Source: a virus
Lineage: Duplodnaviria; Caudoviricetes
IMG/VR virus record: IMGVR_UViG_3300032312_000844
Location: 1-27,255 of that record
Reading direction: 5' to 3' (one strand)
DNA length: 27,255 nt
The notes below the pieces were generated by a model. It was not told the origin of the DNA and searched no databases. It saw only the letters and a program-made list of their open reading frames with translations. The position numbers and the translations under genes were made by a program. Shown here in pieces: positions 1,007 to 24,888 of this stretch (its first letter is position 1; each line of letters opens with the position of its first letter).

Positions 1007-2209
1007 ATGATCAACAAAGAACCTTTCAAAAAACTAATATTAAACCTAAAAGATTCCGGAAAATATCGAGTGTTTAACGATATTTTGCGTGAGCGCGGAG
1101 AGTTCCCTAAAGCTCTGTGGTACGGACCTTATAATATCAAAAACATCACCAACTGGTGTTCTAACGATTATCTAGGCATGGGACAGCATAAAGTAGTTAT
1201 AGATGCCATGCATACTGCCTTAGATCAAACAGGTGCAGGTTCGGGCGGTACTCGAAACATTGGCGGGCACAGTCACTATCATGTGGCCCTAGAACACGAA
1301 CTGGCTATGTTGCACAATAAGAGCAAAGCTCTGTTATTCAGTTCGGCTTATGTGGCCAATGAATGGACTTTGATCGCCCTGAGCAAGATCATAGAAAACA
1401 TACAGTTTATTTCCGATTCAAACAATCACAATAGCTTGATCGTAGGTATTCAACATTCACGAGCTCCCAAGCAGATTTTTCAGCACAACGATCTAAACGA
1501 CCTAGAAGATAAGCTAGCACAGAGCAAACTGGCAGGCTACACACCCTGCATAGTTTTTGAAAGTGTTTACTCAATGGATGGTGATGTTGGTCCTATCAAA
1601 GAAATCTGTGATCTTGCAGACAAGTATCAGGCCATTACCTATATCGACGAAGTACATGCGGTAGGACTCTATGGTACTCACGGAGGTGGAAAAGTAGAAG
1701 AACTAGGACTAGAGTCTAGGATCGATATAATCAATGGCACCTTAGGTAAGGCCTTTGGAGTCCAGGGTGGCTATATCGCCGCCGATGCAGATGTTGTTGA
1801 CGCTATTCGTTCAGTGGCTGCTGGGTTTATCTTTACGACATCGATGAGTCCTGTGGCCTGTTCAGGAGCCCTCGCAGCCATTAAGTATCTCAAAGATCAC
1901 AACGAGGTTAGGGTCAAGCATCAAGAACGTGCTCAAAAACTAAAACAATGTCTTGTAGAAAACGATCTGCCATTGATGGAATGTTCTACTACTCACATCG
2001 TTCCTGTTCTAGTAGGCAATGCAAAACGTGCCAAAGCGATGAGTGACGCTTTGTTAAACGATCACAACATCTATGTACAGGCCATTAACTATCCTACAGT
2101 CCCTGTAGGCACAGAGCGTCTGCGCTTTGCTCCTACACCCTATCACGACGATGCCATGATCAGTGATCTGGTGTTCGCACTAAAGACAGTGTTTAGTAAC
2201 GTTGATTAA
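1007..2209 (+). CDS. hemA: 5-aminolevulinate synthase (PLP-dependent, Shemin C4 pathway)
   Basis: [49 protein letters not shown] (PLP lysine), FIFTTS, INYPTVP.GTERLR; 400 aa. Confidence 0.95.
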
Positions 2210-3062
2210 AAGTTAGATAGTCGTAGTACTGTTCGATGCCCTGCTCAATGGGCACAAAAGAATCTACATCAACTCCTGCTGATTTTAGGAATTCAACATT
2301 GGCTTTGGTGTCTATCTGATATTGTTTAACTAGGTCATCGGGCATAGCAATATATTCTTTTTCGCCTGTGGCTGCTATTTCGATCAATCTATCAGCAACT
2401 TCTTCAAAGGATCTTGAAACACCAGTACCAAGATCATAGATACCTTCTTGATAGTTATTGACGAAATGATGTACAGTCTTGGCCACATCCTCTACCCAAA
2501 TAAAGTCTCTACGGTATTGATCGCTGCTGTGGAATAGCTTTATTCTAAGCTCGTTGATCAACTGATAGTACCAATGATAAACTGTGGATGCCATACGTCC
2601 TTTGTGATGTTCGTTAGGACCGTAGACATTAAACAGCCTAAGCACAACACCGTTGGTAATCTCTTGTTCGCTGACATATTTTGAAAAAGCATAATGATTT
2701 AATGGCCCTGACCCATTACCATAGACCGCAGCTGAACTAGCAAAGATAAACTTTTTATCGTGTTCGGCACAGATATCGTGCCAGCGTCTTGTTGATTCGA
2801 CATTGGTCTTATAGATGCTGCTCCAATCTCTTTCTAAGGTAGAACTGTTAGCACCAAAGTGTATGACACAGTCAAAGTCTTTGATATCTGTGATGATCTC
2901 TTGTGTGCTGTGTAATCCTAGAAATCTCTTGCCTATGAGATTGCTATATTGATCGCCCGAGGGCAAATCATCAAATAGATAAACATCAGTAATACCTTGT
3001 TTGTTTAGATATCCTAGTATGACACTACCAATAAAACCACCTGCACCTGTAAGAGCTATCAT
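2193..3062 (-). CDS. hldD: ADP-L-glycero-D-manno-heptose 6-epimerase-like extended SDR
   Basis: [12 protein letters not shown] motif, [13 protein letters not shown] catalytic motif, [25 protein letters not shown]; heptose operon context. Confidence 0.88.
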
Positions 3063-3820
3063 TTTATTTCCTTTAATGTAGGTGCATACACACCTAGATG
3101 TTGCACTGTTATAGACGCTGCACGATTTGCAAACGCTACAGCCATTGCTATGTCTTTGGTAACCAAATATTGATAGGTCAATGCGGCAAGGAAGGTATCG
3201 CCTGCACCTGTCACGTCTACTACTTCTACTTTAGGTGCGGGTTCATGTACATCATGATGTACGATCCTAGCACCCTTTTCGCCTTCAGTAACTATTAGTC
3301 CTGAGCATTCTGATTTTATTTTACTATACTCTAGACTATTGATCTTTACCCATGCACCTTGCATACGTTCCAGATCTGTTTTCTTAGTATCAACAAACAC
3401 AGGAATTCTAGTAGCTATTGCTTCTTCAACAAGGTCATAGGAAACCGTGCCTTTGTTGTAGTCGCTAATGACAATAGCATCGTAGACTTTAGGTGTAGCT
3501 ATTTTAAACTCGATGGGCTGTGAGACAACATCGTTGTCTATTCTAACAATCTGCTGTTTGCTGCGGCTATCGATTAATCTAGTCTTTTGGCTTTCATTAC
3601 CATGAAGGAAGTTTACATCACAGCCTAGAGCTTCTAAGTTATCAGCGACGTTACCGGCCATGCCTGCACGAGTTTCCTTGTGTGTGGGCACAAACACAGG
3701 TACCGGAGCTTCTGGACTGAGTCTATCAATAGTTCCGTATTGATAGATATCCAGACACTTATCTCCTATTAATAATATCCTGTATTTTGTTTGTGGTTGA
3801 GTATTGTTCAAGTCTGTCAT
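3059..3820 (-). CDS. hldA: heptose-7-phosphate kinase (stand-alone RfaE/HldE kinase domain, PfkB family)
   Basis: IGDKCLDIY.YG...RLSPEAPVPV, AGNVA.NL..LG, SDYNKG, DVTGAGDTF. Start may lie a few codons downstream. Confidence 0.88.
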   Translation of the reverse strand: MTDLNNTQPQTKYRILLIGDKCLDIYQYGTIDRLSPEAPVPVFVPTHKETRAGMAGNVADNLEALGCDVNFLHGNESQKTRLIDSRSKQQIVRIDNDVVSQPIEFKIATPKVYDAIVISDYNKGTVSYDLVEEAIATRIPVFVDTKKTDLERMQGAWVKINSLEYSKIKSECSGLIVTEGEKGARIVHHDVHEPAPKVEVVDVTGAGDTFLAALTYQYLVTKDIAMAVAFANRAASITVQHLGVYAPTLKEIK

Positions 3821-4160
3821 AGAATCTTATTTGTTTGCAGTATTCAGCACCTATGATGGGCTTGTCTTTGTAGTCGCTGCCTTTGACCATAATGTCTGGT
3901 TCAAAGTTTTTAATATAGTTTATCAGTTCTTCATTAGTATCGAAAACGTCTACCCTATCTACAGCTTTGAGCGCGAATAAAAAAGTAGCACGTTCATATT
4001 CTGTATGGATAGGTCTTTCCGAACCTTTGAGTTCTTTTACACGACGATCGCTGTCTATAAGAACATACACATAAGACTCAGGGAACGATTTTGCATATTG
4101 CAGTAGTCTAAGGTGTCCGATGTGTAAGATATCAAAGGTTCCATTTACAATCACTTTCAT
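3759..4160 (-). CDS. hldC: heptose-1-phosphate nucleotidyltransferase (stand-alone RfaE/HldE domain II)
   Basis: NGTFDILHIGH (HIGH motif), SDRRVKELKG.ERP, PDIMVKGSDY, C-terminal YSTT. Confidence 0.88.
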   Translation of the reverse strand: MKVIVNGTFDILHIGHLRLLQYAKSFPESYVYVLIDSDRRVKELKGSERPIHTEYERATFLFALKAVDRVDVFDTNEELINYIKNFEPDIMVKGSDYKDKPIIGAEYCKQIRFYDRLEQYSTTNKIQDIINRR

Positions 4161-4771
4161 GGTAGGCTTTCAACGAACTCTGCGAGATTATCAAAGATCT
4201 TTACTTTGCGAGCGATATCTCTATAAGCGTATCTTTTAAGATCTTTTTCAGTTTCAAGACCATAGCCTGTTCTCACTAAGATAGGCTTAGCACCTATCTT
4301 CAATGCGGCTTTGAGGTCTTTCATCTTATCGCCTACATAATATCCTTGATTGAACTTGATATCCTTTTGATCAGCTTCGCATTTTTTAAACATACCTACA
4401 TTAGGTTTAGCAAATGGATCGTCCTTGCGGCTAGATGCAGAATAATAGATGCCGTCGATACTAGAACATCCTGCCTGTCCTAATAGGTCCAGCATATGAT
4501 AGTGTAGAGAATCAACATCTTCAGGAGTATACAAACCTTTTTCTATACCGCCCTGATCTGTGATGATAACGATCCTATAACCCTTGCGTCTAAGAGCAGC
4601 AATAGATTCAAGACTTCCTTCGATGGGATCAAAGTCTTCTTTCTTCCAGCAGTAGGTGCCAAGGTCTCTATTGATAACCCCGTCGCGATCAAGACCGATC
4701 ACGCACTTGGTCTTGAACTCGCCTCCTATCCAACTAAGCGTCGGTTGGTTGGTCTGCTGGTTTGGTTGCAT
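4157..4771 (-). CDS. gmhB: D,D-heptose 1,7-bisphosphate phosphatase (HAD family)
   Basis: LDRDGVIN, ITDQGGI.KG, KPNVGMF, VGDKMKD, LVRTGYG motifs. Confidence 0.88.
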   Translation of the reverse strand: MQPNQQTNQPTLSWIGGEFKTKCVIGLDRDGVINRDLGTYCWKKEDFDPIEGSLESIAALRRKGYRIVIITDQGGIEKGLYTPEDVDSLHYHMLDLLGQAGCSSIDGIYYSASSRKDDPFAKPNVGMFKKCEADQKDIKFNQGYYVGDKMKDLKAALKIGAKPILVRTGYGLETEKDLKRYAYRDIARKVKIFDNLAEFVESLP

Positions 4772-5135
4772 TCTGACTGTCTCCTGGAATAATCCTATAG
4801 TTGTCTTCTACAGAATCTGCTGTGCTAACTTCGAAGATCATTGAGTTTGGTGCGAGAGCGATCAGTTGATGTGGCATCATCGGCGGGTTACGCCATACCT
4901 CTCCCTCGCTTAACACTTTTTCGTGAAAGGTAGCGGTCTTGGTATCGCACCATATCAACTTGAACTGTCCTGCGTTGACAAACCAAGTTTCGTCTTTTTC
5001 TTTGTGGAAGTGCATGCTGAACCTTGCACCCATTTTTTCAAATACCATGATCTTACCACAGTATTTGTCGTTGGTGGCCCAAATGATTTCGTAGCCCCAA
5101 CCTTTGTCTACTTTACCTTCTAGTCTTTGTGTCAT
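4734..5135 (-). CDS. cupin-fold sugar-phosphate isomerase-like protein
   Basis: [18 protein letters not shown] (metal-binding His/His/Glu), [13 protein letters not shown]; mannose-6-P isomerase-like cupin pattern. Confidence 0.75.
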
Positions 5136-5722
5136 GGTCTTTTCTCAATGATTTTATCAATGAGTCCGTATTCTAATGCTTCTTCTGCGCTCATGAACTT
5201 GTCACGATCCATGTCACGCTCAAACTCTTCGTAGGTCTTACCTTTAGTATTGTGCTTGACATACAGTTCTGTAAGACGGTTTTTAATATGCATGATCTCT
5301 TTGTAAGAGATTTCGATATCAGATGCCATGCCACGAGCCCCGCCACTTGGCTGATGGATCATGTGTCTTGCATTAGGCAACATAAATCGTTTGCCTGGTG
5401 CACCTGCATTGGCCAGGAACGATCCCATAGAGCAGGCCTGGCCCATGACATAGGTAGCCACGTCAGGTTTAATAAACTGCATGGTATCGTATATAGACAT
5501 ACCGGCTGTGACTACACCGCCGGGGCTGTTGATGAACAGATTGATATCTTTATCTGGGTTTTCGCTTTCTAAAAATAGTAGCTGAGCAACGATTAGATTC
5601 GCCATATGGTCCTCTACAGGACCATTTAACATAATGATTCGCTCTTTGAGAAGTCTACTATAGATATCAAAAGCTCTTTCGCCCTTTGAAGTAGATTCTA
5701 CTACCATCGGTACTAGTGTCAT
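5132..5722 (-). CDS. clpP: ATP-dependent Clp protease proteolytic subunit
   Basis: LVPMVVE...[29 protein letters not shown] (Ser), HQPSGG (His), DRD.FMSAEEA.EYGLID (Asp). Confidence 0.97.
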
Positions 5723-6446: not shown

Positions 6447-6977
6447 ATGCAACGACAAGACGGATTCAAAGGCGGTATTCAAAGTGGCACAGTAGCCACT
6501 GACTCTCACGCCAAACAACTTGATCACGATCTTAAATCTATACAACAGGAACTGGCCACTGAACTTAAAGAACAAGGCTTTACTTGTCGTAAGAAGCTAG
6601 AAAAAGATTTTTTGATCGAGCAAGGTGTGTTAGTAGGCTGCGAACCCGACGGCGGACTTTGGTTCAAGGGCGGAAAACTCGTGGCAGCTTTTGAAGGCAA
6701 GAAACAGGGCAAAGGCGGAAACGCCATTGAGCGATGGGAAAAGAACTACAATATTTGTAAGAGTCTTAACCCAGATATCAAATACATTACCTTTGGCGCT
6801 AGGGAAGGTTTCGAAAGCGACGGCTATCCCTACAAGTATGCCAAGACTATGTTGAACAGAGAAAACAAAGAATTAAATACTTTGTACGAACAAGGACAAA
6901 GTTGGTTTGTGAATCCCCAGGGGTTCGCAAAAGAAGAGATTAGATCCATAATGAAACAGGCATTGATAGGCAAATAA
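6447..6977 (+). CDS. EcoRI/MunI-like PD-(D/E)xK type II restriction endonuclease
   Basis: PDGG...FEGKKQG..GNAIERWEKN parallels EcoRI PDGG...EAKHQG...GNAIERSHKN; its stop overlaps the methylase ATG. Confidence 0.72.
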   Translation: MQRQDGFKGGIQSGTVATDSHAKQLDHDLKSIQQELATELKEQGFTCRKKLEKDFLIEQGVLVGCEPDGGLWFKGGKLVAAFEGKKQGKGGNAIERWEKNYNICKSLNPDIKYITFGAREGFESDGYPYKYAKTMLNRENKELNTLYEQGQSWFVNPQGFAKEEIRSIMKQALIGK

Positions 6978-7918
6978 TGAAACCACTATACATCTGGGCA
7001 GGCGGCAAGAACAAAATGATTCCTAAGTATCAGGCGAACCCTGGTATTCCCTATTCTGGTTATGATACATTTGTAGAGCCGTTCTTTGGAGGTGGTGCCA
7101 TGATGGTGCATATCTTCCAAAATGCTCCCCTGGTCAAGCGTTTTATTATGAACGATATCAATCCAGAGATAGTGGGCATTTATCGAGCTATCAAATCTGA
7201 TGTACAAAACTTTCTCAATAGAATGGATGTGCTCCAGGCAGCGTACCTGCCGTTATCTAAGGTAGATCGTAAGAAGTTCTATTATGATCTACGCACAGAG
7301 TACACTACAAACTGGACACAATGGAACAGCACAGACGAATCCGCTACATTGTATTTCTTAATGAAGACTGGGTTCAATGGCATTTGGCAAACTAATCAAA
7401 CTTCTAATGGAAGATTTGCTACCCCATCTGGATTGTTAAATCAAACTACCAAAGTCTACGATCGAGACAATGTCTTAGAATGGAATGTCTTCTTGCAAAA
7501 AGTTGATATCTTCTGTGGCGATTGGAGAGCCTGTGCTGAATCTGTAGAAGGTCGTGCATTTTATTTCATGGATCCGCCCTATCGCGACAGTTTCACACAA
7601 TACGGACAGATCTTCGATGACAACGCACACATACAGTTAATCGATTTCTGTAAGCAACGTGATCTGGCAGGTGATTTGGTTTTCTACTGTAATCGCGATG
7701 CTGGTGACGACTTCTACGACCTTAATCGCGGACAGTTAGTAGAAGCAAAATATCCTATTACATATACAGCAGGTCGTCGTAAACAAACCAAAGACGAAGA
7801 AACAGGCAAAGTTTCACACGCTGCCAAATCTGCTACCGAAATACTGCTTCACAGTCCGTCTATCCAAAAGACTGTCCAAACTCCTGTTATTGAAAAGTTC
7901 GTAGAAATCGTTGATTGA
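6977..7918 (+). CDS. N6-adenine DNA methyltransferase, Dam/D12 (alpha) class
   Basis: WAGGK, FVEPFFGGGA (motif I), NDIN, GFNG, FMDPPY (motif IV). Confidence 0.92.
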   Translation: MKPLYIWAGGKNKMIPKYQANPGIPYSGYDTFVEPFFGGGAMMVHIFQNAPLVKRFIMNDINPEIVGIYRAIKSDVQNFLNRMDVLQAAYLPLSKVDRKKFYYDLRTEYTTNWTQWNSTDESATLYFLMKTGFNGIWQTNQTSNGRFATPSGLLNQTTKVYDRDNVLEWNVFLQKVDIFCGDWRACAESVEGRAFYFMDPPYRDSFTQYGQIFDDNAHIQLIDFCKQRDLAGDLVFYCNRDAGDDFYDLNRGQLVEAKYPITYTAGRRKQTKDEETGKVSHAAKSATEILLHSPSIQKTVQTPVIEKFVEIVD

Positions 7919-7943
7919 CAACACCTGATATTTCTGTTATACT
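7915..7943 (+). promoter_or_regulatory. sigma70-like promoter for the ligase operon
   Basis: TTGACA-N17-TATACT. Confidence 0.7.
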
Positions 7944-7968
7944 ATTGATATAGTAAACATTTTCAGGA

Positions 7969-9300
7969 GTGATCGTGAGAACTCAACCACAGGCTATTAT
8001 TCAACGTCTTGAAGCAGACAACAGCCGTCTAGCTAAAGAAGCTATCATTGCAGATGCTATGACTGAAGGACTCGACGAGTTCTTTGAGGGTGTTCGTATG
8101 TGTTTGGACAAACTCTATACATTTGGTGTCAAGCAAGTACCTGTCAAAGAAGAAGATGCAGGCCAAGGACTCAGTTGGGACAACTTTAAACAACTAGCCG
8201 AGAGTCTTTATCGACGTGAACTCACTGGACATGCCGCACGTGATGCTATTAAGTTAGCCATGGACGTGGCTACCAAAGAACAATGGAACGATTGGTATCG
8301 CAGGATTCTTATTTCCGATCTTCGCTGTGGCGTTTCTGAAAAGACTGTGAACTCTGTAGCTAAGAAGCAAAAGAAATCACAGTATGCAGTACCTGTATTT
8401 GAGTGTATGTTGGCGCACGATTCTGCTAATCATGAAGCCAAGGTCACAGGAAAGAAACTGGTAGAACCTAAACTAGATGGTGTTCGTGCTATCACTGTAG
8501 TCAACTACGAAAGCCGTACTGTTACAATGTACACACGTAACGGTAAAGAACTGGCAAACTTTCCACACGTTATCAAAGCATTTGAAGACAATCTAGATAA
8601 TTTTGGTCGTAGTTATATGTTCGACGGTGAAGTTATTTCTAAATCATTCCAAGATTTAATGAAGCAGGTTCATCGCAAAGATAATGTGCAGGCACAAGAT
8701 GCTCGCCTAATGTTGTTCGATGTTGTTCCACTTGTAGAGTTTAAAGCTGGCAAGAGTGTGATGGGACAACGTCGACGTTCTAATATGCTGAAGAACTGGC
8801 AAAACATTTTCAATGACAGTGGCTGTATCGATATCGTTCCTCAACAAGAGTTCGATCTCGATGTGCTCACTGACGAAGTCTTGTTCAAAGACTACAACAA
8901 AGAAATGGTTGAAGCTGGATTTGAAGGCATTATGATCAAATCAGTCGATGCACCCTATGAGTGCAAGCGAAGCACTTCTTGGCTCAAACAAAAACCATTC
9001 ATCGAAGTTAGTCTTTCAGTGACTGCGGTCGAAGAAGGTACAGGACGTAATGTAGGTAAACTAGGTGCTATCGTATGTGAAGGTGTCGATGATGATAAAA
9101 CGATTGTGGTCAATGTTGGTTCAGGTTTTACGGACGAACAGAGAGCAGAATTCTGGGAAGCTAAAGATAGCCTCATTGGGCAGGTCGTAGAAGTCCGTGC
9201 GGATGCAGCGACTCGGAGCCAAGATAGTGAAGATACATGGTCACTACGGTTTCCGCGGTTCCTTAGATTCCGTGGCTTTACAAAAGGTGAAAAGATCTAA
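7969..9300 (+). CDS. lig: ATP-dependent DNA ligase (T4 gp30-like)
   Basis: EPKLDGVR (adenylated Lys), FDGE, FDVV, EGIMIK, YECKRS..WLKQKP, VGSGFTD, SLRFPRF. Start may be GTG at 7975. Confidence 0.96.
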   Translation: MIVRTQPQAIIQRLEADNSRLAKEAIIADAMTEGLDEFFEGVRMCLDKLYTFGVKQVPVKEEDAGQGLSWDNFKQLAESLYRRELTGHAARDAIKLAMDVATKEQWNDWYRRILISDLRCGVSEKTVNSVAKKQKKSQYAVPVFECMLAHDSANHEAKVTGKKLVEPKLDGVRAITVVNYESRTVTMYTRNGKELANFPHVIKAFEDNLDNFGRSYMFDGEVISKSFQDLMKQVHRKDNVQAQDARLMLFDVVPLVEFKAGKSVMGQRRRSNMLKNWQNIFNDSGCIDIVPQQEFDLDVLTDEVLFKDYNKEMVEAGFEGIMIKSVDAPYECKRSTSWLKQKPFIEVSLSVTAVEEGTGRNVGKLGAIVCEGVDDDKTIVVNVGSGFTDEQRAEFWEAKDSLIGQVVEVRADAATRSQDSEDTWSLRFPRFLRFRGFTKGEKI

Positions 9301-10603: not shown

Positions 10604-11164
10604 ATGATCACTCTTAAAGATTTTATGGAAACTGTTGACTACCGTATCACTGAGGGCAGTGACTATCAGTGGAACTGTTATGGATCTACAGCCTACTGTC
10701 TAGACAGTTGGAACGGAGAACAGGATGGTCATAGTCTCTCTGTTATTTTTGATACTCGTACTCAAGAAGTCTATGAATCACAGGTTCACGACTACAGAAA
10801 CAATAGAGCCTATCGTTTGACTAATCCTAAATATCAGGCTCTCAGGGACGAAGAAGCAAACTATCGAGGCATTGACAAGGGTGAAGCTTGGGATGACCTT
10901 AAGTATGTAGAACTTGATGTCAAAGAAGACTTCCTAGAAAAGGCTCGTGCCATCGTCAGTGAAGAAGACTACGATACTCGTGTAAGTGTTCCTATTGACT
11001 TCACTGACGAAGAACTACTCAAGTACATGACCTTAGCTCACGAGCGTGATATCACTTTCAATCAGTTGGTAGAACAGGCTCTTGTTGCTGCTGTTGAAGA
11101 TGCTAAGAATGATCCTGAAGGGTTCAAAGAACGTTTTGGTCGATCTAGCTTAGCCAGCGACTGA
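10604..11164 (+). CDS. hypothetical phage protein (acidic; possible ribbon-helix-helix-like C-terminus)
   Basis: 186-aa ORF with AGGA RBS; C-terminal LAHERDITFNQLVEQAL. Confidence 0.75.
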   Translation: MITLKDFMETVDYRITEGSDYQWNCYGSTAYCLDSWNGEQDGHSLSVIFDTRTQEVYESQVHDYRNNRAYRLTNPKYQALRDEEANYRGIDKGEAWDDLKYVELDVKEDFLEKARAIVSEEDYDTRVSVPIDFTDEELLKYMTLAHERDITFNQLVEQALVAAVEDAKNDPEGFKERFGRSSLASD

Positions 11165-11699
11165 CAGCTTGTGTTCCGCTGAGTTCGCAGGCATAGTTCC
11201 ACAGATCTGCGGGATCTACATTAAACAACACATCTGGATGCGGTGCATCGGCTGTTAACCAACTGCTTTCTAGTTGGAATGGTCGATCTCCGCTGAGTTC
11301 CATTTCCAACTGCCCAGGTGACCAACTGGCTAATCCTAAATAGAATCTAGCTCTACGTGGACCACCAGTGTTGCCCAGTTCTGCGAACATGCTGGTCGAA
11401 CTGCTCACTGCCCAGTCATCGTTGACTTCTAGAGTATTGTCACATTCCCAACCCTTGTCGTGTAGCATCCAAAGAGTGGTAGTGGCCACTGGGCCTCCCC
11501 AGAACAAAGGTTGATCTGGATCAAGTTCTCTGCCCAATGGTTTGATCAGTGTATTAACTGTGGTAGTGGTTTCTTTGTTTAGGCACAGTGCCTGAGTACC
11601 GTGTAGGCCATCATAGGTTATTAACAGTACTGACTTTCTAAATCGGGGATCTATCATCCCCGGGGGTGCGATTAGTAGTTCCCCAGGTTTATACAACAT
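11145..11699 (-). CDS. YqgE/AlgH family protein (DUF179)
   Basis: GELLIAPPGMIDPRFRKSVLL, FWGGPV, LGLASWSPGQLEMEL, SWL, LW motifs. Confidence 0.88.
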   Translation of the reverse strand: MLYKPGELLIAPPGMIDPRFRKSVLLITYDGLHGTQALCLNKETTTTVNTLIKPLGRELDPDQPLFWGGPVATTTLWMLHDKGWECDNTLEVNDDWAVSSSTSMFAELGNTGGPRRARFYLGLASWSPGQLEMELSGDRPFQLESSWLTADAPHPDVLFNVDPADLWNYACELSGTQAVSRWLS

Positions 11700-12826: not shown

Positions 12827-13402
12827 TCAGTAGATATTAAAGGGTATGCTCCATCTGGGTCGATCTGTGGTGTTGGGTTCCACACGATGAGTCAACCAAC
12901 TAGGGAATAGTACGATCCTACCATGTTGGGGTTCTATGCGCCACCCTTGACGAAATGGCTGCTGATCCGCAGGGAACATGCGATTCTGCATCAGCACATT
13001 GGGATCACGGAATCTTATGGCACCTTGATCTGGACTAGCTCTGTGATAGTAGGTGCCTGATATGCGGCTGTCTGGGTGTGTGTGATCATACATGAAGTCA
13101 CCCTGATCAAAACGGTTCAACCAGCTTTCTTTAAGGAACAGGGTAGTAGGGTCATAGTTTAGACTATGACAGTAGGCCTTGACAGCTCCGTGTATGGCCT
13201 GCTCCAGAGCTACTAATCTGTACTTGCGTAGATCGTTAGAGCCCTGGAAAGAGAAAGTGGTCTTGACCAAATCGTCCCAGGGCCTGTCCTTGATGTCTAC
13301 ACGATCAAGACAGCGATCCACCTGCTCTGTGATGATCTCTAGTTCTTCGCCCTCTAGGTCTTGAACCCAAAGGGGTGTGCTAAACACAGCTTCTAGGGTC
13401 AA
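12827..13402 (-). CDS. 2OG-Fe(II) oxygenase (TIGR02466-like)
   Basis: ESWLN, HTHPDSRISGTYY, F.DP, LFPSWLTHRVEPN, RWSIPFN; probable TTG start overlapping the upstream TGA. Confidence 0.85.
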   Translation of the reverse strand: MTLEAVFSTPLWVQDLEGEELEIITEQVDRCLDRVDIKDRPWDDLVKTTFSFQGSNDLRKYRLVALEQAIHGAVKAYCHSLNYDPTTLFLKESWLNRFDQGDFMYDHTHPDSRISGTYYHRASPDQGAIRFRDPNVLMQNRMFPADQQPFRQGWRIEPQHGRIVLFPSWLTHRVEPNTTDRPRWSIPFNIY

Positions 13403-13983
13403 AATGCAAACCTTTGATAGCTGCTCATCACGTACTTGGGACGAGCCACTGCTTTGAGTCCTTCGTGCGGCCAAGGCCACATGGGCGGGAATATCAGTAT
13501 TGATCCAGCACGGCTTTCTATTTCTAGATCCTGCTGAGGAAAGCGTGTGCCAGCGTCAGCGTCATTTAAGTAGAACAGGAATCCCAGAAAACGTTCTGCT
13601 GAGTCTCGATGTCCTACATCTGCGTGTATGCGGAACTCATGCTCGCCTGGACGATACTGCTTGACACGGAAGCCTTCAGCGGCCCAGTGTGAGGGCAGCA
13701 TTTCATGTGGATCCCACTGATTGCGATACATGTTGCCTTCTACTTCCATGAGCTTCATGAACTCTGAGCCCACACGTTCCAGCTGATCGGGATCTACCAA
13801 GGGGTTCTCCGGATCTTGCTCAAACTTCAGGGCCAAGAGATCTAGTTCTACTAGACGTCCGGGCACTTCTTTGTGTCGGCTTTCGCACTTGTGAAAAATG
13901 TCTATGAGCTCTAGGCATATTTCTGGGGGTATTACACCGTCTATGACTCTGATCGAGTCTTGGTCTATTCTTACGTTTCTCAT
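13399..13983 (-). CDS. 2OG-Fe(II) oxygenase, prolyl-4-hydroxylase-like
   Basis: HAD...FLFYLNDADAGTRF...FPPMWPWPHEG...KY; GAGGTG RBS. Confidence 0.85.
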   Translation of the reverse strand: MRNVRIDQDSIRVIDGVIPPEICLELIDIFHKCESRHKEVPGRLVELDLLALKFEQDPENPLVDPDQLERVGSEFMKLMEVEGNMYRNQWDPHEMLPSHWAAEGFRVKQYRPGEHEFRIHADVGHRDSAERFLGFLFYLNDADAGTRFPQQDLEIESRAGSILIFPPMWPWPHEGLKAVARPKYVMSSYQRFAF

Positions 13984-14011
13984 TGGGTCACCTCTAGGGT
14001 ATTTACATCAG

Positions 14012-14548
14012 TTAAACATAGTGTAGGTAAGAGCTGAGTATGTATTTTGGCTCTCGCTGTGGTGCCAGTCCTTCATGCGGAAACTGCCACTGCGGGGGAA
14101 ACACTAGACAACGACCCTGACGTGCAGCCACGGTGTGATCAAGGGCGACAAAGCGTGTGCCCGCATCACTGTCATTTAAGTAGAACAGAAACGATAGGAA
14201 ACGACCACTGTTGGCACGACGATCTACATCCACATGCGGGGGAAAGCATTGATTCAGTTCAGGCGCATAGCGTTTGATTCGACTAGTTTCCTGTGCATAA
14301 CTGTCAGGCCACCATTCTCTGCACATCAGATCTAGGCCATACTGTTCTGCTAGTTGATTAACTACTGTGCTGATCTGATCACGTAGCTGTAGCCATTTTC
14401 GAGCCCAGGGTTCACGATCTCGCAGGCTCAGTGCAGTCAGTCGCCCTTCTTCTTCCCAGAGTCTAGGGTTCGATTCAAACACTGAGATCATCTCTGTGCA
14501 GAACTCAGAGGTAAAGGCATGATCATAGGTCTTTAGGTATTGGAGCAT
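14012..14548 (-). CDS. 2OG-Fe(II) oxygenase, prolyl-4-hydroxylase-like (paralog of the neighbour)
   Basis: HVD...FLFYLNDSDAGTRF...FPPQWQFPHEG...KY; ATG at 14548 lies 4 nt after TAAATA. Confidence 0.85.
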   Translation of the reverse strand: MLQYLKTYDHAFTSEFCTEMISVFESNPRLWEEEGRLTALSLRDREPWARKWLQLRDQISTVVNQLAEQYGLDLMCREWWPDSYAQETSRIKRYAPELNQCFPPHVDVDRRANSGRFLSFLFYLNDSDAGTRFVALDHTVAARQGRCLVFPPQWQFPHEGLAPQREPKYILSSYLHYV

Positions 14549-14654
14549 GAGATATTTAATCGAGCCGAAGGCGCCGCGCAATTTTTCTGCCGCGAAGCGG
14601 AGCGCCAGCGATTTTTTGTTCTAGCCATAAATATCGTCATAACAGGAGCGAACC

Positions 14655-22452: not shown

Positions 22453-23532
22453 ATGAGTGCAGATATTTCCGTTCGCCAGATGGGTCCAAAGATGGCTAAG
22501 CGAGCCATTCGCAAGGCTATCAAAACCCGTCGTGCCGTGTTCCTTTGGGGCCCTCCGGGCATTGGCAAATCCGATCTCGTCAAGCAGATCGGTGAAGACG
22601 CAGGTCGTGAAGTCATTGACGTGCGCCTAGCTCTGTGGGAACCCACAGACATCAAAGGTATTCCTTATTACAATGCCGATCAGGGCAAGATGGTTTGGGC
22701 TCCCCCAAGCGAACTGCCTGTCAACGAAGATAGCACGTCTATCATCTTCTTGGACGAGCTTAACTCTGCTCCTCCGGCTGTTCAGGCCGCGGCCTATCAG
22801 TTGATCCTTAACCGTCAAGTAGGCACCTACAAACTGCCCAAGGGCGTTGACATTGTCGCGGCTGGTAACCGTGAAGGTGACCGTGGTGTTACCTATCGTA
22901 TGCCTGCTCCGCTGGCTAACCGTTTCCTGCACTTGGAAATGAAGGTAGACTTCGATGACTTTCAAGAGTGGGCTACGATGAATCGTATCCATCCTGAGGT
23001 CGTAGGCTATGTGAGCTTCGCCAAGCAGGACCTGTATGACTTTGATCCTAAGAGCCCAAGCAAGGCTTTCGCAACTCCTCGTTCGTGGGTGTTCGTCAGC
23101 GAACTGCTTGATGACGAAGATTCGGACACTGAAACCCTGCACAACTTGATCGCGGGTGCCGTAGGTGATGGTCTTGCTGTCAAGTTCATGGCTCACCGTA
23201 AGATTGCGTCTAAACTGCCTAAGGCAGATGACATTCTCGACGGTAAGGTCAAGGACCTGCAGATCAAAGAAGTGTCAGCGATGTATTCTTTGACTACTTC
23301 GCTCTGCTATGAGTTGAAAGACCGTGCAGAGAAGAAGGTCAAGGGTTGGGATGAAATGGCAGATCGTTTCTTCCAATACATGATGGCGAACTTCTCTACT
23401 GAGATCGTGGTCATGGGTGCTAAGACTGCTCTTACTAACTACAACTTGCCGTTGGATGCTACGAAGATGAAGAGCTTCGATGAGTTCCACAAGCGTTTTG
23501 GCAAGTATGTTTTGTCGGCGATGGAGAACTAA
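22453..23532 (+). CDS. MoxR-like AAA+ ATPase
   Basis: WGPPGIGKS, IIFLDELN, AAYQLIL.R, AAGNR, PLANRF.H, TPRSW. Confidence 0.9.
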   Translation: MSADISVRQMGPKMAKRAIRKAIKTRRAVFLWGPPGIGKSDLVKQIGEDAGREVIDVRLALWEPTDIKGIPYYNADQGKMVWAPPSELPVNEDSTSIIFLDELNSAPPAVQAAAYQLILNRQVGTYKLPKGVDIVAAGNREGDRGVTYRMPAPLANRFLHLEMKVDFDDFQEWATMNRIHPEVVGYVSFAKQDLYDFDPKSPSKAFATPRSWVFVSELLDDEDSDTETLHNLIAGAVGDGLAVKFMAHRKIASKLPKADDILDGKVKDLQIKEVSAMYSLTTSLCYELKDRAEKKVKGWDEMADRFFQYMMANFSTEIVVMGAKTALTNYNLPLDATKMKSFDEFHKRFGKYVLSAMEN

Positions 23533-23673
23533 GACCCCTCCCGCCCGGGCGGGGCTCACCCAGGGTCCCGCCCACCTTTTTGGAGTGCCGGCGGTGTTGT
23601 AAATACACAACATTGCTGGGGTTGACAGTTTGGCAATCCGGTGCTATAATATACAAATACTAAGGAGAGCGAC

Positions 23674-24888
23674 ATGGCGCAAGATTCAGCACTTATCGAG
23701 AAACTTACCACTGCCCGGGTTGGCCTTCTGCTCAAAGCACCGTTCTTTGGCAACATGGCAACTCGTATGCAACTCATCGACGCCTCAGACTGGTGTCCTA
23801 CTGCGGCGACTAATGGTCGCAACTTCTACTACAATAAAGACTTCGTTTCCAAGCTCTCTGTCAAGAAACTAGAGTTCCTGTTTGGTCACGAGATCCTTCA
23901 CTGCGTTCTAGACCACTTTGGTCGCGTAGGTAGCCGTGATCGCAACTTGTCTAACATCGCACAAGACTTCGCTGTCAACCAGATCCTTGTTGATGAGCGT
24001 GTGGGTGAGAAGATCACTGAAGTGCAGATCTGCTACGACAGCAAATATCGTGGCAAGGCTTGGGAAGAGATCTATGACGAGCTCTACGAAAAAGCAGAGA
24101 AGATCTCTATGCCACAACTGCTCAAAGAGCTAGGTGATCTGCTTGACGAGCACCTTGATGCAGAAGGTCCTGGCTCTGGTGACAAGACCAAAGACGGCAA
24201 GGACAAGCCCAGCATCTCTAAAGAAGAACTGCAGAAGATCAAGGACGAGATCAAAGAGGCTATGATCCAGAGTGCCGCGGCCTGTGGTGCTGGCAAAGTG
24301 CCTGCAGGTATCATGCGCCTGATCAAGTCTATGACTGAGCCTAAGATGAACTGGCGTCAGTTGGTGCAACAAGAGATCCAAAGCATTGTTCGCAACGACT
24401 ACTCCTTTACCCGTCCTAACCGTAAGTCAATGCACAGTGGCGCTATCCTCCCAGGTATGCGTCCTGACGTGACCATTGACGTGGCTATCGCTATTGATAT
24501 GTCGGGTTCAATCGGTGAAGAAGATGCCAGTGCCTTCCTTGGCGAGATCAAGGGCATCATGGATCAGTATGAGGACTTCAAGATCAGCCTGTGGTGCTTT
24601 GACACTGAGATCTACAACTTCAAAGAGATTACACAAGACAACAGTATGGATCTCCTTGACTACGAACCTCAGGGTGGTGGTGGCACAGACTTTGCCGTGA
24701 ACTTTGAGTTCATGAAGGAGCAGGGTCTTCAACCTCGTAAGTTTATCATGTTCACAGACGGCTATCCCTGCGGTAGTTGGGGTGACTCAGACTACTGCGA
24801 TACCCTGTTCATCGTCAAGGGCAATACATCTGCAGAAGCACCCTTTGGTCAGACTGTGATCTATGAGAAGGAAACCGCTACTGCGTGA
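23674..24888 (+). CDS. HExxH metallopeptidase-like domain plus vWA domain protein (DUF2201 type)
   Basis: TAATNG, HEILH, NIAQDFAVN; vWA MIDAS DMSGSI, GGGGTDF, FTDG. Confidence 0.9.
   Translation: MAQDSALIEKLTTARVGLLLKAPFFGNMATRMQLIDASDWCPTAATNGRNFYYNKDFVSKLSVKKLEFLFGHEILHCVLDHFGRVGSRDRNLSNIAQDFAVNQILVDERVGEKITEVQICYDSKYRGKAWEEIYDELYEKAEKISMPQLLKELGDLLDEHLDAEGPGSGDKTKDGKDKPSISKEELQKIKDEIKEAMIQSAAACGAGKVPAGIMRLIKSMTEPKMNWRQLVQQEIQSIVRNDYSFTRPNRKSMHSGAILPGMRPDVTIDVAIAIDMSGSIGEEDASAFLGEIKGIMDQYEDFKISLWCFDTEIYNFKEITQDNSMDLLDYEPQGGGGTDFAVNFEFMKEQGLQPRKFIMFTDGYPCGSWGDSDYCDTLFIVKGNTSAEAPFGQTVIYEKETATA

Follow-up and report, generated by a model that had tools for sequence, protein, structure and literature searches.

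The window analyzed here is an entire virus contig of 27,255 bases, and our negative results on GmhA for this phage span that contig alone. Its minus strand carries six genes in the order clpP, cupin, gmhB, hldC, hldA and hldD; according to the list of open reading frames, every gene overlaps the next. The first gene of the run encodes a full-length, bacterial-type ClpP protease (5132..5722, minus strand; PRK00277 above cut-off), which is outside the sugar pathway and whose gene is linked to the heptose operon by translational coupling. Its stop codon and the start codon of the cupin gene share the sequence ATGA. A clpP match was found in 36 of 86 relative loci.

The cupin (5135..4734, minus strand; Cupin_1, phrog_7851) comprises 133 residues and is a predicted metal-dependent isomerase of sedoheptulose-7-phosphate (S7P). 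It is followed on the same strand by a GmhB-like heptose-1,7-bisphosphate phosphatase of the HAD-IIIA type (4157..4771; PRK08942, E = 2.6e-38, 131 bits with a cut-off of 178), the heptose-1-phosphate nucleotidyltransferase HldC (RfaE domain II; 3759..4160; TIGR02199, E = 4.4e-30), the heptose-7-phosphate kinase HldA (RfaE domain I; 3059..3820; TIGR02198, E = 3.7e-45; phrog_8133, E = 1.2e-89) and the ADP-heptose 6-epimerase HldD (GmhD; 2193..3062; TIGR02197, E = 1.8e-72, 244 bits; GalE, 59 bits). The names GmhB, HldC, HldA and HldD are those of the best NCBIfam matches, all four of which score under the curated cut-offs. The C-terminus of HldC reads RLEQYSTT, in which STT is kept and the STTR5 arginine is absent. 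As this arginine has been tied to the synthesis of CDP/UDP-heptose (PMC11573728), ADP-heptose is the likelier product of the window enzyme.

The initial annotation described a metal-binding cupin that precedes and overlaps gmhB, which is confirmed by the motif HFHKEKDE and by an overlap of 38 bases between the 3' end of the cupin gene and the first ATG of gmhB (4771). Its second statement, that GmhA is the missing heptose step, also holds within the window: GmhB, HldC, HldA and HldD were matched, and a local GmhA profile found nothing in the six frames of the 27,255 bases. A candidate ribosome-binding site, AGGAG (4781..4785, minus strand), is located nine bases before the gmhB ATG, within Pro-Gly-Asp codons of the cupin gene, and likely serves gmhB. 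A promoter scan of the window gave 11 sites with 11.4 expected by chance, and a sequence scan did not find TATAAATA in the window. No heptose acceptor was found on the 27,255-base contig.

Several other genes surround the operon. A 5-aminolevulinate synthase gene (1007-2209, plus strand; TIGR01821 above cut-off) runs towards hldD, and the two overlap by 17 bases. It has a match in 35 of 86 relative loci, and its distribution hints at an alphaproteobacterial host for this phage. A D12 adenine methylase lies behind a 176-residue gene without Pfam match (6447-7918, plus strand). The window also contains an AlgH-like gene (11145-11699, minus strand), three consecutive 2OG-Fe(II) oxygenases (12827-14581, minus strand) and a MoxR-type ATPase with a metallopeptidase-vWA partner (22453-24888, plus strand).

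Family and active site of the cupin

The cupin matches the Pfam family Cupin_1 with 28.9 bits (cut-off 22) and the phrog_7851 profile over its full length (residues 7-119, E = 1.2e-36), and tblastn links it to PSSM2_312 (PHROG 7851 / T4-GC 307). It has at least 1,680 relatives, the best 120 of which are 74-88% identical; in the Atlas, the viral cupin clusters carry no assigned function. The motif HFHKEKDE corresponds to residues 42-49 and the fourth ligand histidine is residue 89, giving the metal set H42, H44, E49 and H89. These four residues are invariant in all 25 rows of alignment A2, whose rows were picked for an intact motif, and are kept in 77, 88, 76 and 81 rows, respectively, of the 90-row alignment A1. 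Further conserved residues are K11, W13, E16, Y25, K28, K47, E102, S104, D111 and R114. One locus contains a tandem cupin paralogue without the first histidine and the glutamate of the metal site (L013:9602-9988); about a dozen degenerate rows of this kind occur in A1, for which an inactive partner or an altered function is possible.

In searches of Pfam and NCBIfam the cupin was matched neither by the SIS models of GmhA (TIGR00441, PF13580) nor, at E <= 0.01, by those of type II phosphomannose isomerase (PMI; PF01050, TIGR01479); the local GmhA profile was negative as well. The D-lyxose isomerase family PF07385 scored 17.2 bits, under the Pfam cut-off of 20.8. With hhalign, residues K28, H42, H44, K47, E49, H89 and E102 fall on K90, H103, H105, K108, E110, H171 and E186 of ECs_5070 (P = 93.9), a protein of E. 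coli O157 which we take to be the studied E. coli lyxose isomerase. The same motifs align in a protein from Bacillus that carries the annotation lyxose/mannose isomerase (P = 96.8, E = 2.3e-10). In the lyxose isomerase TsLI the sugar is contacted by K62, H75, H77, K86, E88, H143, E156 and D163, and the reaction probably proceeds via a cis-enediol with E88 as the base (PMC8378251). Judged by the alignments to these two TsLI relatives, the cupin matches seven of the eight TsLI active-site residues. The exception is D163: D107 of the cupin is shifted by one column and is replaced by histidine in many family members, while the invariant D111 pairs with a later aspartate.

The cupin shares with the lyxose/mannose isomerases (PF07385; TsLI, ECs_5070) the aligned pattern K...HxH...KxE...H...E, and their manno-configured aldose-ketose chemistry (PMC8378251) is that predicted for the cupin. 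Unlike them, it is shorter, begins with KGWG, ends with DxxR, does not clearly keep the D163-type aspartate and resides in biosynthetic clusters, with a phosphorylated heptose as the predicted substrate. Type II PMI (PF01050; C-terminus of CpsB/ManC) resembles the cupin in its size, in its fusions to nucleotide-sugar enzymes and in its start, since hhalign places KGWG on RPWG in the isomerase domain of CpsB from E. coli (P = 93.1); it also shares sugar-phosphate isomerisation with the predicted cupin function. It differs in having QxHxxRxE where the cupin has HxHxxKxE, and the two are found on opposite sides of the tree. Likewise, the MPI described in cyanophage S-SCSM1 (PMC9602691) is found by CpsB and not by the window cupin, and is of a different family. 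On these alignments, the core of the cupin is lyxose-isomerase-like and its frame is PMI-like.

A quick tree was calculated from 125 rows, after thinning 390 domains at 68% identity and dropping 69 short loci without neighbours. A split with a support of 98 separates 97 rows, which hold 52 of the 53 heptose-linked cupins together with long-branched lyxose isomerases, from CpsB and 11 of the 12 rows with long N-terminal fusions. Archaeal fusions of a nucleotidyltransferase with a cupin, a sister group that falls with CpsB in this tree, make up about a third of 80 prokaryote motif loci, and the GenBank label 'putative nucleotidyltransferase' probably derives from them. Of the 80 loci, 15 have HldC or a heptose kinase nearby. 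In L180:4122-5141, L229:5299-6303 and about 26 further archaeal loci a sugar-phosphate nucleotidyltransferase is fused to a KPWG-type cupin. Such fusions are widespread in Methanobacteria and other archaea and have the layout of type II PMI/GMP but an HxHxxKxE site. No lyxose isomerase was found in five genomes searched, and a plasmid search gave two distant Sinorhizobium matches in a non-heptose cluster.

Distribution of the cupin and GmhA

Among annotated phages, the cupin is present in 35 records (19 named viruses by count, with many repeats), all of which contain a heptose kinase (HldA in 31, HddA in the other four). By accession, none of the 35 is among the 13 records that match E. coli GmhA. 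TIGR00441 had no match in five whole cyanophage genomes. The converse is seen in Caulobacter phage Cr30, which has HddA together with a GmhA-like gene of the SIS type and is not matched by phrog_7851. Two 735-kb phage records carry HldA alone, with no cupin match in the one that was searched. A GmhA 66% identical to that of E. coli was observed in a 636-kb phage record (L101:9998-10567) and in a 348-kb contig (L088); in neither case does a further heptose gene lie within 10 kb.

The label 'phosphoheptose isomerase' on cyanophage genes was considered as a refutation and rejected, because all six proteins tested, from five genomes, are misannotated HAD phosphatases: they have 102-116 residues, start with DIDG or DIDE and are not matched by GmhA models at E <= 0.1. 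The labels stand on minimal, EcbF-BcbF-like HAD phosphatases (L081:7700-8020, L082:9652-9996, L083:5658-6008, L084:5434-5742, L085:6026-6337 and 7667-7996), which may substitute for GmhB in cyanophage heptose clusters.

For uncultured viruses (IMG/VR) we used three sets of loci, which overlap and include near-identical phages. The 80 closest cupin-anchored loci contain HldA or HldC in 79 cases and GmhA in none, so the arrangement of cupin and heptose genes is not due to chance. The 60 loci anchored on HldA include 44 with the cupin and none with GmhA. In 80 motif-sampled viral loci, HldA, HldC or HddA was found in 58 and GmhA in one; for the other 22, neither HldC nor a heptose kinase is seen in neighbourhoods of up to 6 kb, and HldA occurs elsewhere in one of 14 of these heptose-poor fragments (7-45% complete). 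SIS_2 was absent from five jumbo relatives of 280-365 kb, four of them at least 90% complete, and TIGR00441 matched one of 45 further whole viral records. A motif scan puts the number of stretches at about 4,100 in viruses and 770 in prokaryotes, the latter including the sister group.

Among the 16 HldA loci without the cupin, hldA lies within 1 kb of the contig end in five and one locus is a 5.5-kb contig; in L123 the cupin is located elsewhere in the 345-kb record. Nine loci with a divergent HldA and no hldC have neither cupin nor GmhA, on fragments 17-50% complete. HldA-like kinases with neither gene in view were noted in L151-L158, L160, L100:9962-10948 and L432-L443. HldA without either gene may be due to fragmentary records, to reliance on the host, to a different substrate or to a third isomerase. 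Both genes occur in one cluster, two genes apart, in L204 and L346. There, a module of HldA, HldC and cupin stands with a second one of HddA, a GmhA-like protein, a phosphatase and an HldC-like protein (L204:4526-9411, L346:2728-7283); the GmhA-like proteins are short (167-174 residues) and score weakly.

Fusions connect the cupin with four heptose enzymes. It forms the C-terminal part of HldA-cupin fusions in L165, L200, L231, G135, G147 and G573 (partial in L253 and L267). It is fused to HldC in the order cupin-HldC in P0234 and L288 and in the reverse order in P0192, to a small HAD phosphatase in P0191 (HAD-cupin) and to HldD in L219 (cupin-HldD). In G225 and G300, HldA is instead fused to GmhA where others carry the cupin. 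Tridomain enzymes that likewise combine isomerase, kinase and nucleotidyltransferase are known (PMC11573728). A transketolase N-terminal gene is located two genes upstream of the HldA-cupin fusion in the CPR locus L165 (3347-6312) and near a cupin-heptose cluster on a viral contig (L355:6976-7710). Transketolase makes S7P, and both genes could supply it.

In order to compare cells, 301 archaeal genomes were drawn evenly from the class of G012 (Nanoarchaeota); the assemblies are incomplete and related. HldA was found in 41 of them, GmhA in 47 and the cupin at E <= 1e-20, a threshold fixed after the scores were seen, in 12. The 41 HldA-bearing archaea comprise 20 with GmhA, nine with a strong cupin, none with both and 12 with neither. 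Fisher's test gives p = 0.0013, which becomes 0.0033 when the centre genome G012, picked for its cupin, is removed; kinship makes both values overstate the effect. Strong-cupin archaea also hold HldA more often (8/11 versus 32/289, p = 6e-6, again overstated by kinship). Four of the nine strong cupins in HldA-bearing archaea are on or beside HldA and five are not beside it. Weak matches (E from 1e-9 to 1e-16; 27 of 39 genomes) stand outside this contingency table. Most of the nine that we read are PMI-type or KPWG...DDVxR sister proteins, those of G228 and G122 adjoin GmhA-like genes, and the cupin of G285 (E = 3e-21, no HldA) is of the sister type.

A second sample, whose assemblies are likewise incomplete and related, consisted of 331 genomes from the phylum of G007 (Ca. 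Liptonbacteria), of which only the 27 with HldA were searched further. In 22 of these, GmhA was present at E <= 1e-40 with no strong cupin. Four lack GmhA; in two of the four, G411 and G573, the cupin is fused to HldA or encoded next to it. In G007 itself, which was chosen as the centre of the sample, HldA is fused to the cupin and a weak GmhA (4e-14) lies in an HddA module. In one CPR clade, the two genes exchange places in one of eight operons: G411 has the order cupin-hldA-gmhB and its seven clade-mates gmhA-hldA-gmhB. The HldA of G411 nests among those of the clade-mates as sister to that of G659 (FastTree, 38 rows, support 98-100).

The exclusion of cupin and GmhA is not absolute. Of 12 cells whose cupin is heptose-linked, seven have a TIGR00441 match elsewhere (E from 7e-62 to 7e-11). 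In four of these seven an HddA module includes a GmhA-like copy, which would be expected if every module brings its own isomerase, while in G008, G013 and G017 the GmhA-like gene, and in G016 its best copy, is outside the HddA module. Of 11 cells with an unlinked cupin, four also have GmhA and ten have HldA elsewhere; six of these ten lack GmhA save for weak matches in long open reading frames. The anti-correlation of cupin and gmhA that the initial annotation had put forward as a check is thus seen, in phages as well as in both evenly drawn samples, as near mutual exclusion. One part of its refuting case, gmhA together with the cupin, does occur in some cells and in one viral contig; for the most part, the two genes exclude each other.

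Function of the cupin

We consider it likely, from sequence comparison, that the cupin is a second kind of S7P isomerase standing in for GmhA. The proposal of an alternative GmhA had been made in the initial annotation and gains support from the exclusion, the fusions to four heptose enzymes, the one exchange of operon slots and the lyxose-isomerase-like catalytic set. The diversion of the pathway to another sugar, which it had offered as well, is weaker because the heptose-specific C6 epimerase HldD stays in the operon and the cupin needs no GmhA beside it.

The known isomerase, GmhA (EC 5.3.1.28), is described as a zinc enzyme with four protomers (PMC11056994, PMC5705639). The cupin is like GmhA in its predicted reaction, its operon slot (G411 versus G659) and its kind of HldA fusion. 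Both go with the HldA and the HddA routes: in phages, viral loci and cells the cupin is linked or fused to HldA or HddA, as GmhA is. The folds are unrelated, GmhA having the SIS fold with about 190 residues and the cupin belonging to a barrel family with about 120-133 residues. The stereochemistry of the reaction fits a cupin isomerase, because S7P is fructose-6-phosphate plus one carbon and the product is manno-configured; the conversions of S7P to manno-heptose-7-phosphate and of fructose to mannose have the same stereochemistry at C1-C3.

Based on the lyxose isomerases we propose the following mechanism. H42, H44, E49 and H89 would bind a divalent metal ion, and K28 and E102 would hold the sugar. 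E49 would shift the proton via a cis-enediol, which would be steadied by K47 and the metal. More tentatively, by likeness to type II PMI, K11 and R114 may bind the 7-phosphate.

The main rival is an isomerase of mannose-6-phosphate/fructose-6-phosphate, or a broad sugar-phosphate isomerase, that serves a hexose nucleotide while the heptose genes use a GmhA of the host. The CpsB alignment is in line with such a role, as are the JGI label 'mannose-6-phosphate isomerase-like' on relatives and the fusion of the sister group to archaeal sugar-phosphate nucleotidyltransferases and, in L214, to a ManC-like protein. We nevertheless regard it as unlikely: CpsB has QMHHHRAE in place of HFHKEKDE, the split with a support of 98 parts it from nearly all heptose-linked rows, and the marine virus AG-345-E15 has its own, separate type II PMI approximately 5 kb from the cupin. 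Moreover, the exclusion of GmhA and the slot exchange would be left unexplained, and the LPS cores of cyanobacteria have been described as free of heptose (PMC4390846).

Two further roles fit worse, since both require GmhA. The cupin could be a C3/C5 epimerase or 3,4-ketoisomerase, similar to RmlC or FdtA, that modifies the nucleotide-heptose once it is complete, so that a different heptose is made. Cupins of such roles do occur in surface-sugar clusters, a weak match to WbuC was found (TIGR04366, 29 bits, under the cut-off of 42) and one Atlas cluster name mentions WxcM. Nevertheless, this is quite improbable, as no RmlC or FdtA model in Pfam or NCBIfam matched at E <= 0.01, and most fusions join the kinase, which is the next step past isomerisation. 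Enzymes of the RmlC and FdtA types require a 4-keto sugar, yet the ORF list and NCBIfam gave no second dehydratase or reductase in the window operon. The GmhA needed upstream is, furthermore, mostly excluded by the cupin.

Alternatively, the cupin could be a heptose-7-phosphate anomerase that provides HldA with the beta anomer. It is mostly found with HldA, and GmhA of the same cell often with HddA; in L204 and L346 the order is hldA-hldC-cupin followed by hddA-gmhA-like. This role is very improbable, because in Bellamy, SynMITS9220M01 and AG-345-E15 the cupin lies between HddA and HddC of the alpha route, and the supply of substrate would require GmhA, which is absent from the whole Bellamy genome. 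Finally, the RefSeq and PHROGs labels (phrog_7851 is named 'cysteine dioxygenase') suggest an oxygenase, of the cysteine dioxygenase or another cupin type, whose link to the heptose genes would be one of association. This is barely conceivable: sequence searches of solved structures gave generic cupins, the best being oxalate decarboxylases and quercetin dioxygenases (E from 8e-9 to 1e-5), but these matches span the generic metal motif, the lysine and glutamate positions outside it align with lyxose isomerases, no Pfam or NCBIfam model of cysteine dioxygenase matched, and the fusions to four heptose enzymes would remain unexplained.

Known phage clusters and significance

The same set of genes as in the window is present in P-SSM2 (PSSM2_309-313, T4-GC 304-308), with HldC, HldA, a phosphatase, the cupin (PSSM2_312) and an epimerase. 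In cyanomyovirus clusters, annotations name the cupin a cysteine dioxygenase or a nucleotidyltransferase and the small HAD protein a 'phosphoheptose isomerase'; where these clusters have the small HAD protein, the window has a GmhB-type phosphatase. The P-SSM2 clusters have been described as LPS genes (PMC1079782), SynMITS9220M01 has been reported with a 'phosphoheptose isomerase' (PMC7378029) and the LPS genes of pelagiphages include rfaE (PMC7029224). According to a commentary, a cross-kingdom survey intersected known enzyme types, with the phosphatase absent from viruses (PMC11461863). Contrary to this, GmhB-like and small HAD genes are present in viral heptose clusters.

No report of a cupin S7P isomerase was found in the open-access literature searched. 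If an S7P isomerase is indeed what the cupin is, the enzyme family would be new and the reaction known, and the cupin would be a new non-homologous isofunctional enzyme for a step that the sources cited for GmhA regard as the first committed one in making nucleotide-heptose and as a target for antibacterials. The long-listed 'LPS' clusters of cyanophages would be completed, and two annotations would shift, that of the cupin and that of the 'phosphoheptose isomerase', which is a phosphatase. Phage heptose clusters would be self-sufficient. A second, structurally unrelated family of S7P isomerases probably exists, which would be the predominant one in cyanomyoviruses and aquatic jumbo phages (its motif occurs in about 4,100 IMG/VR stretches) and would also serve DPANN archaea, CPR bacteria and some Binatia, Acidobacteria and Planctomycetes. 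Surveys based on GmhA would then undercount the producers of ADP-heptose, and more organisms would be predicted to make this ALPK1 agonist.
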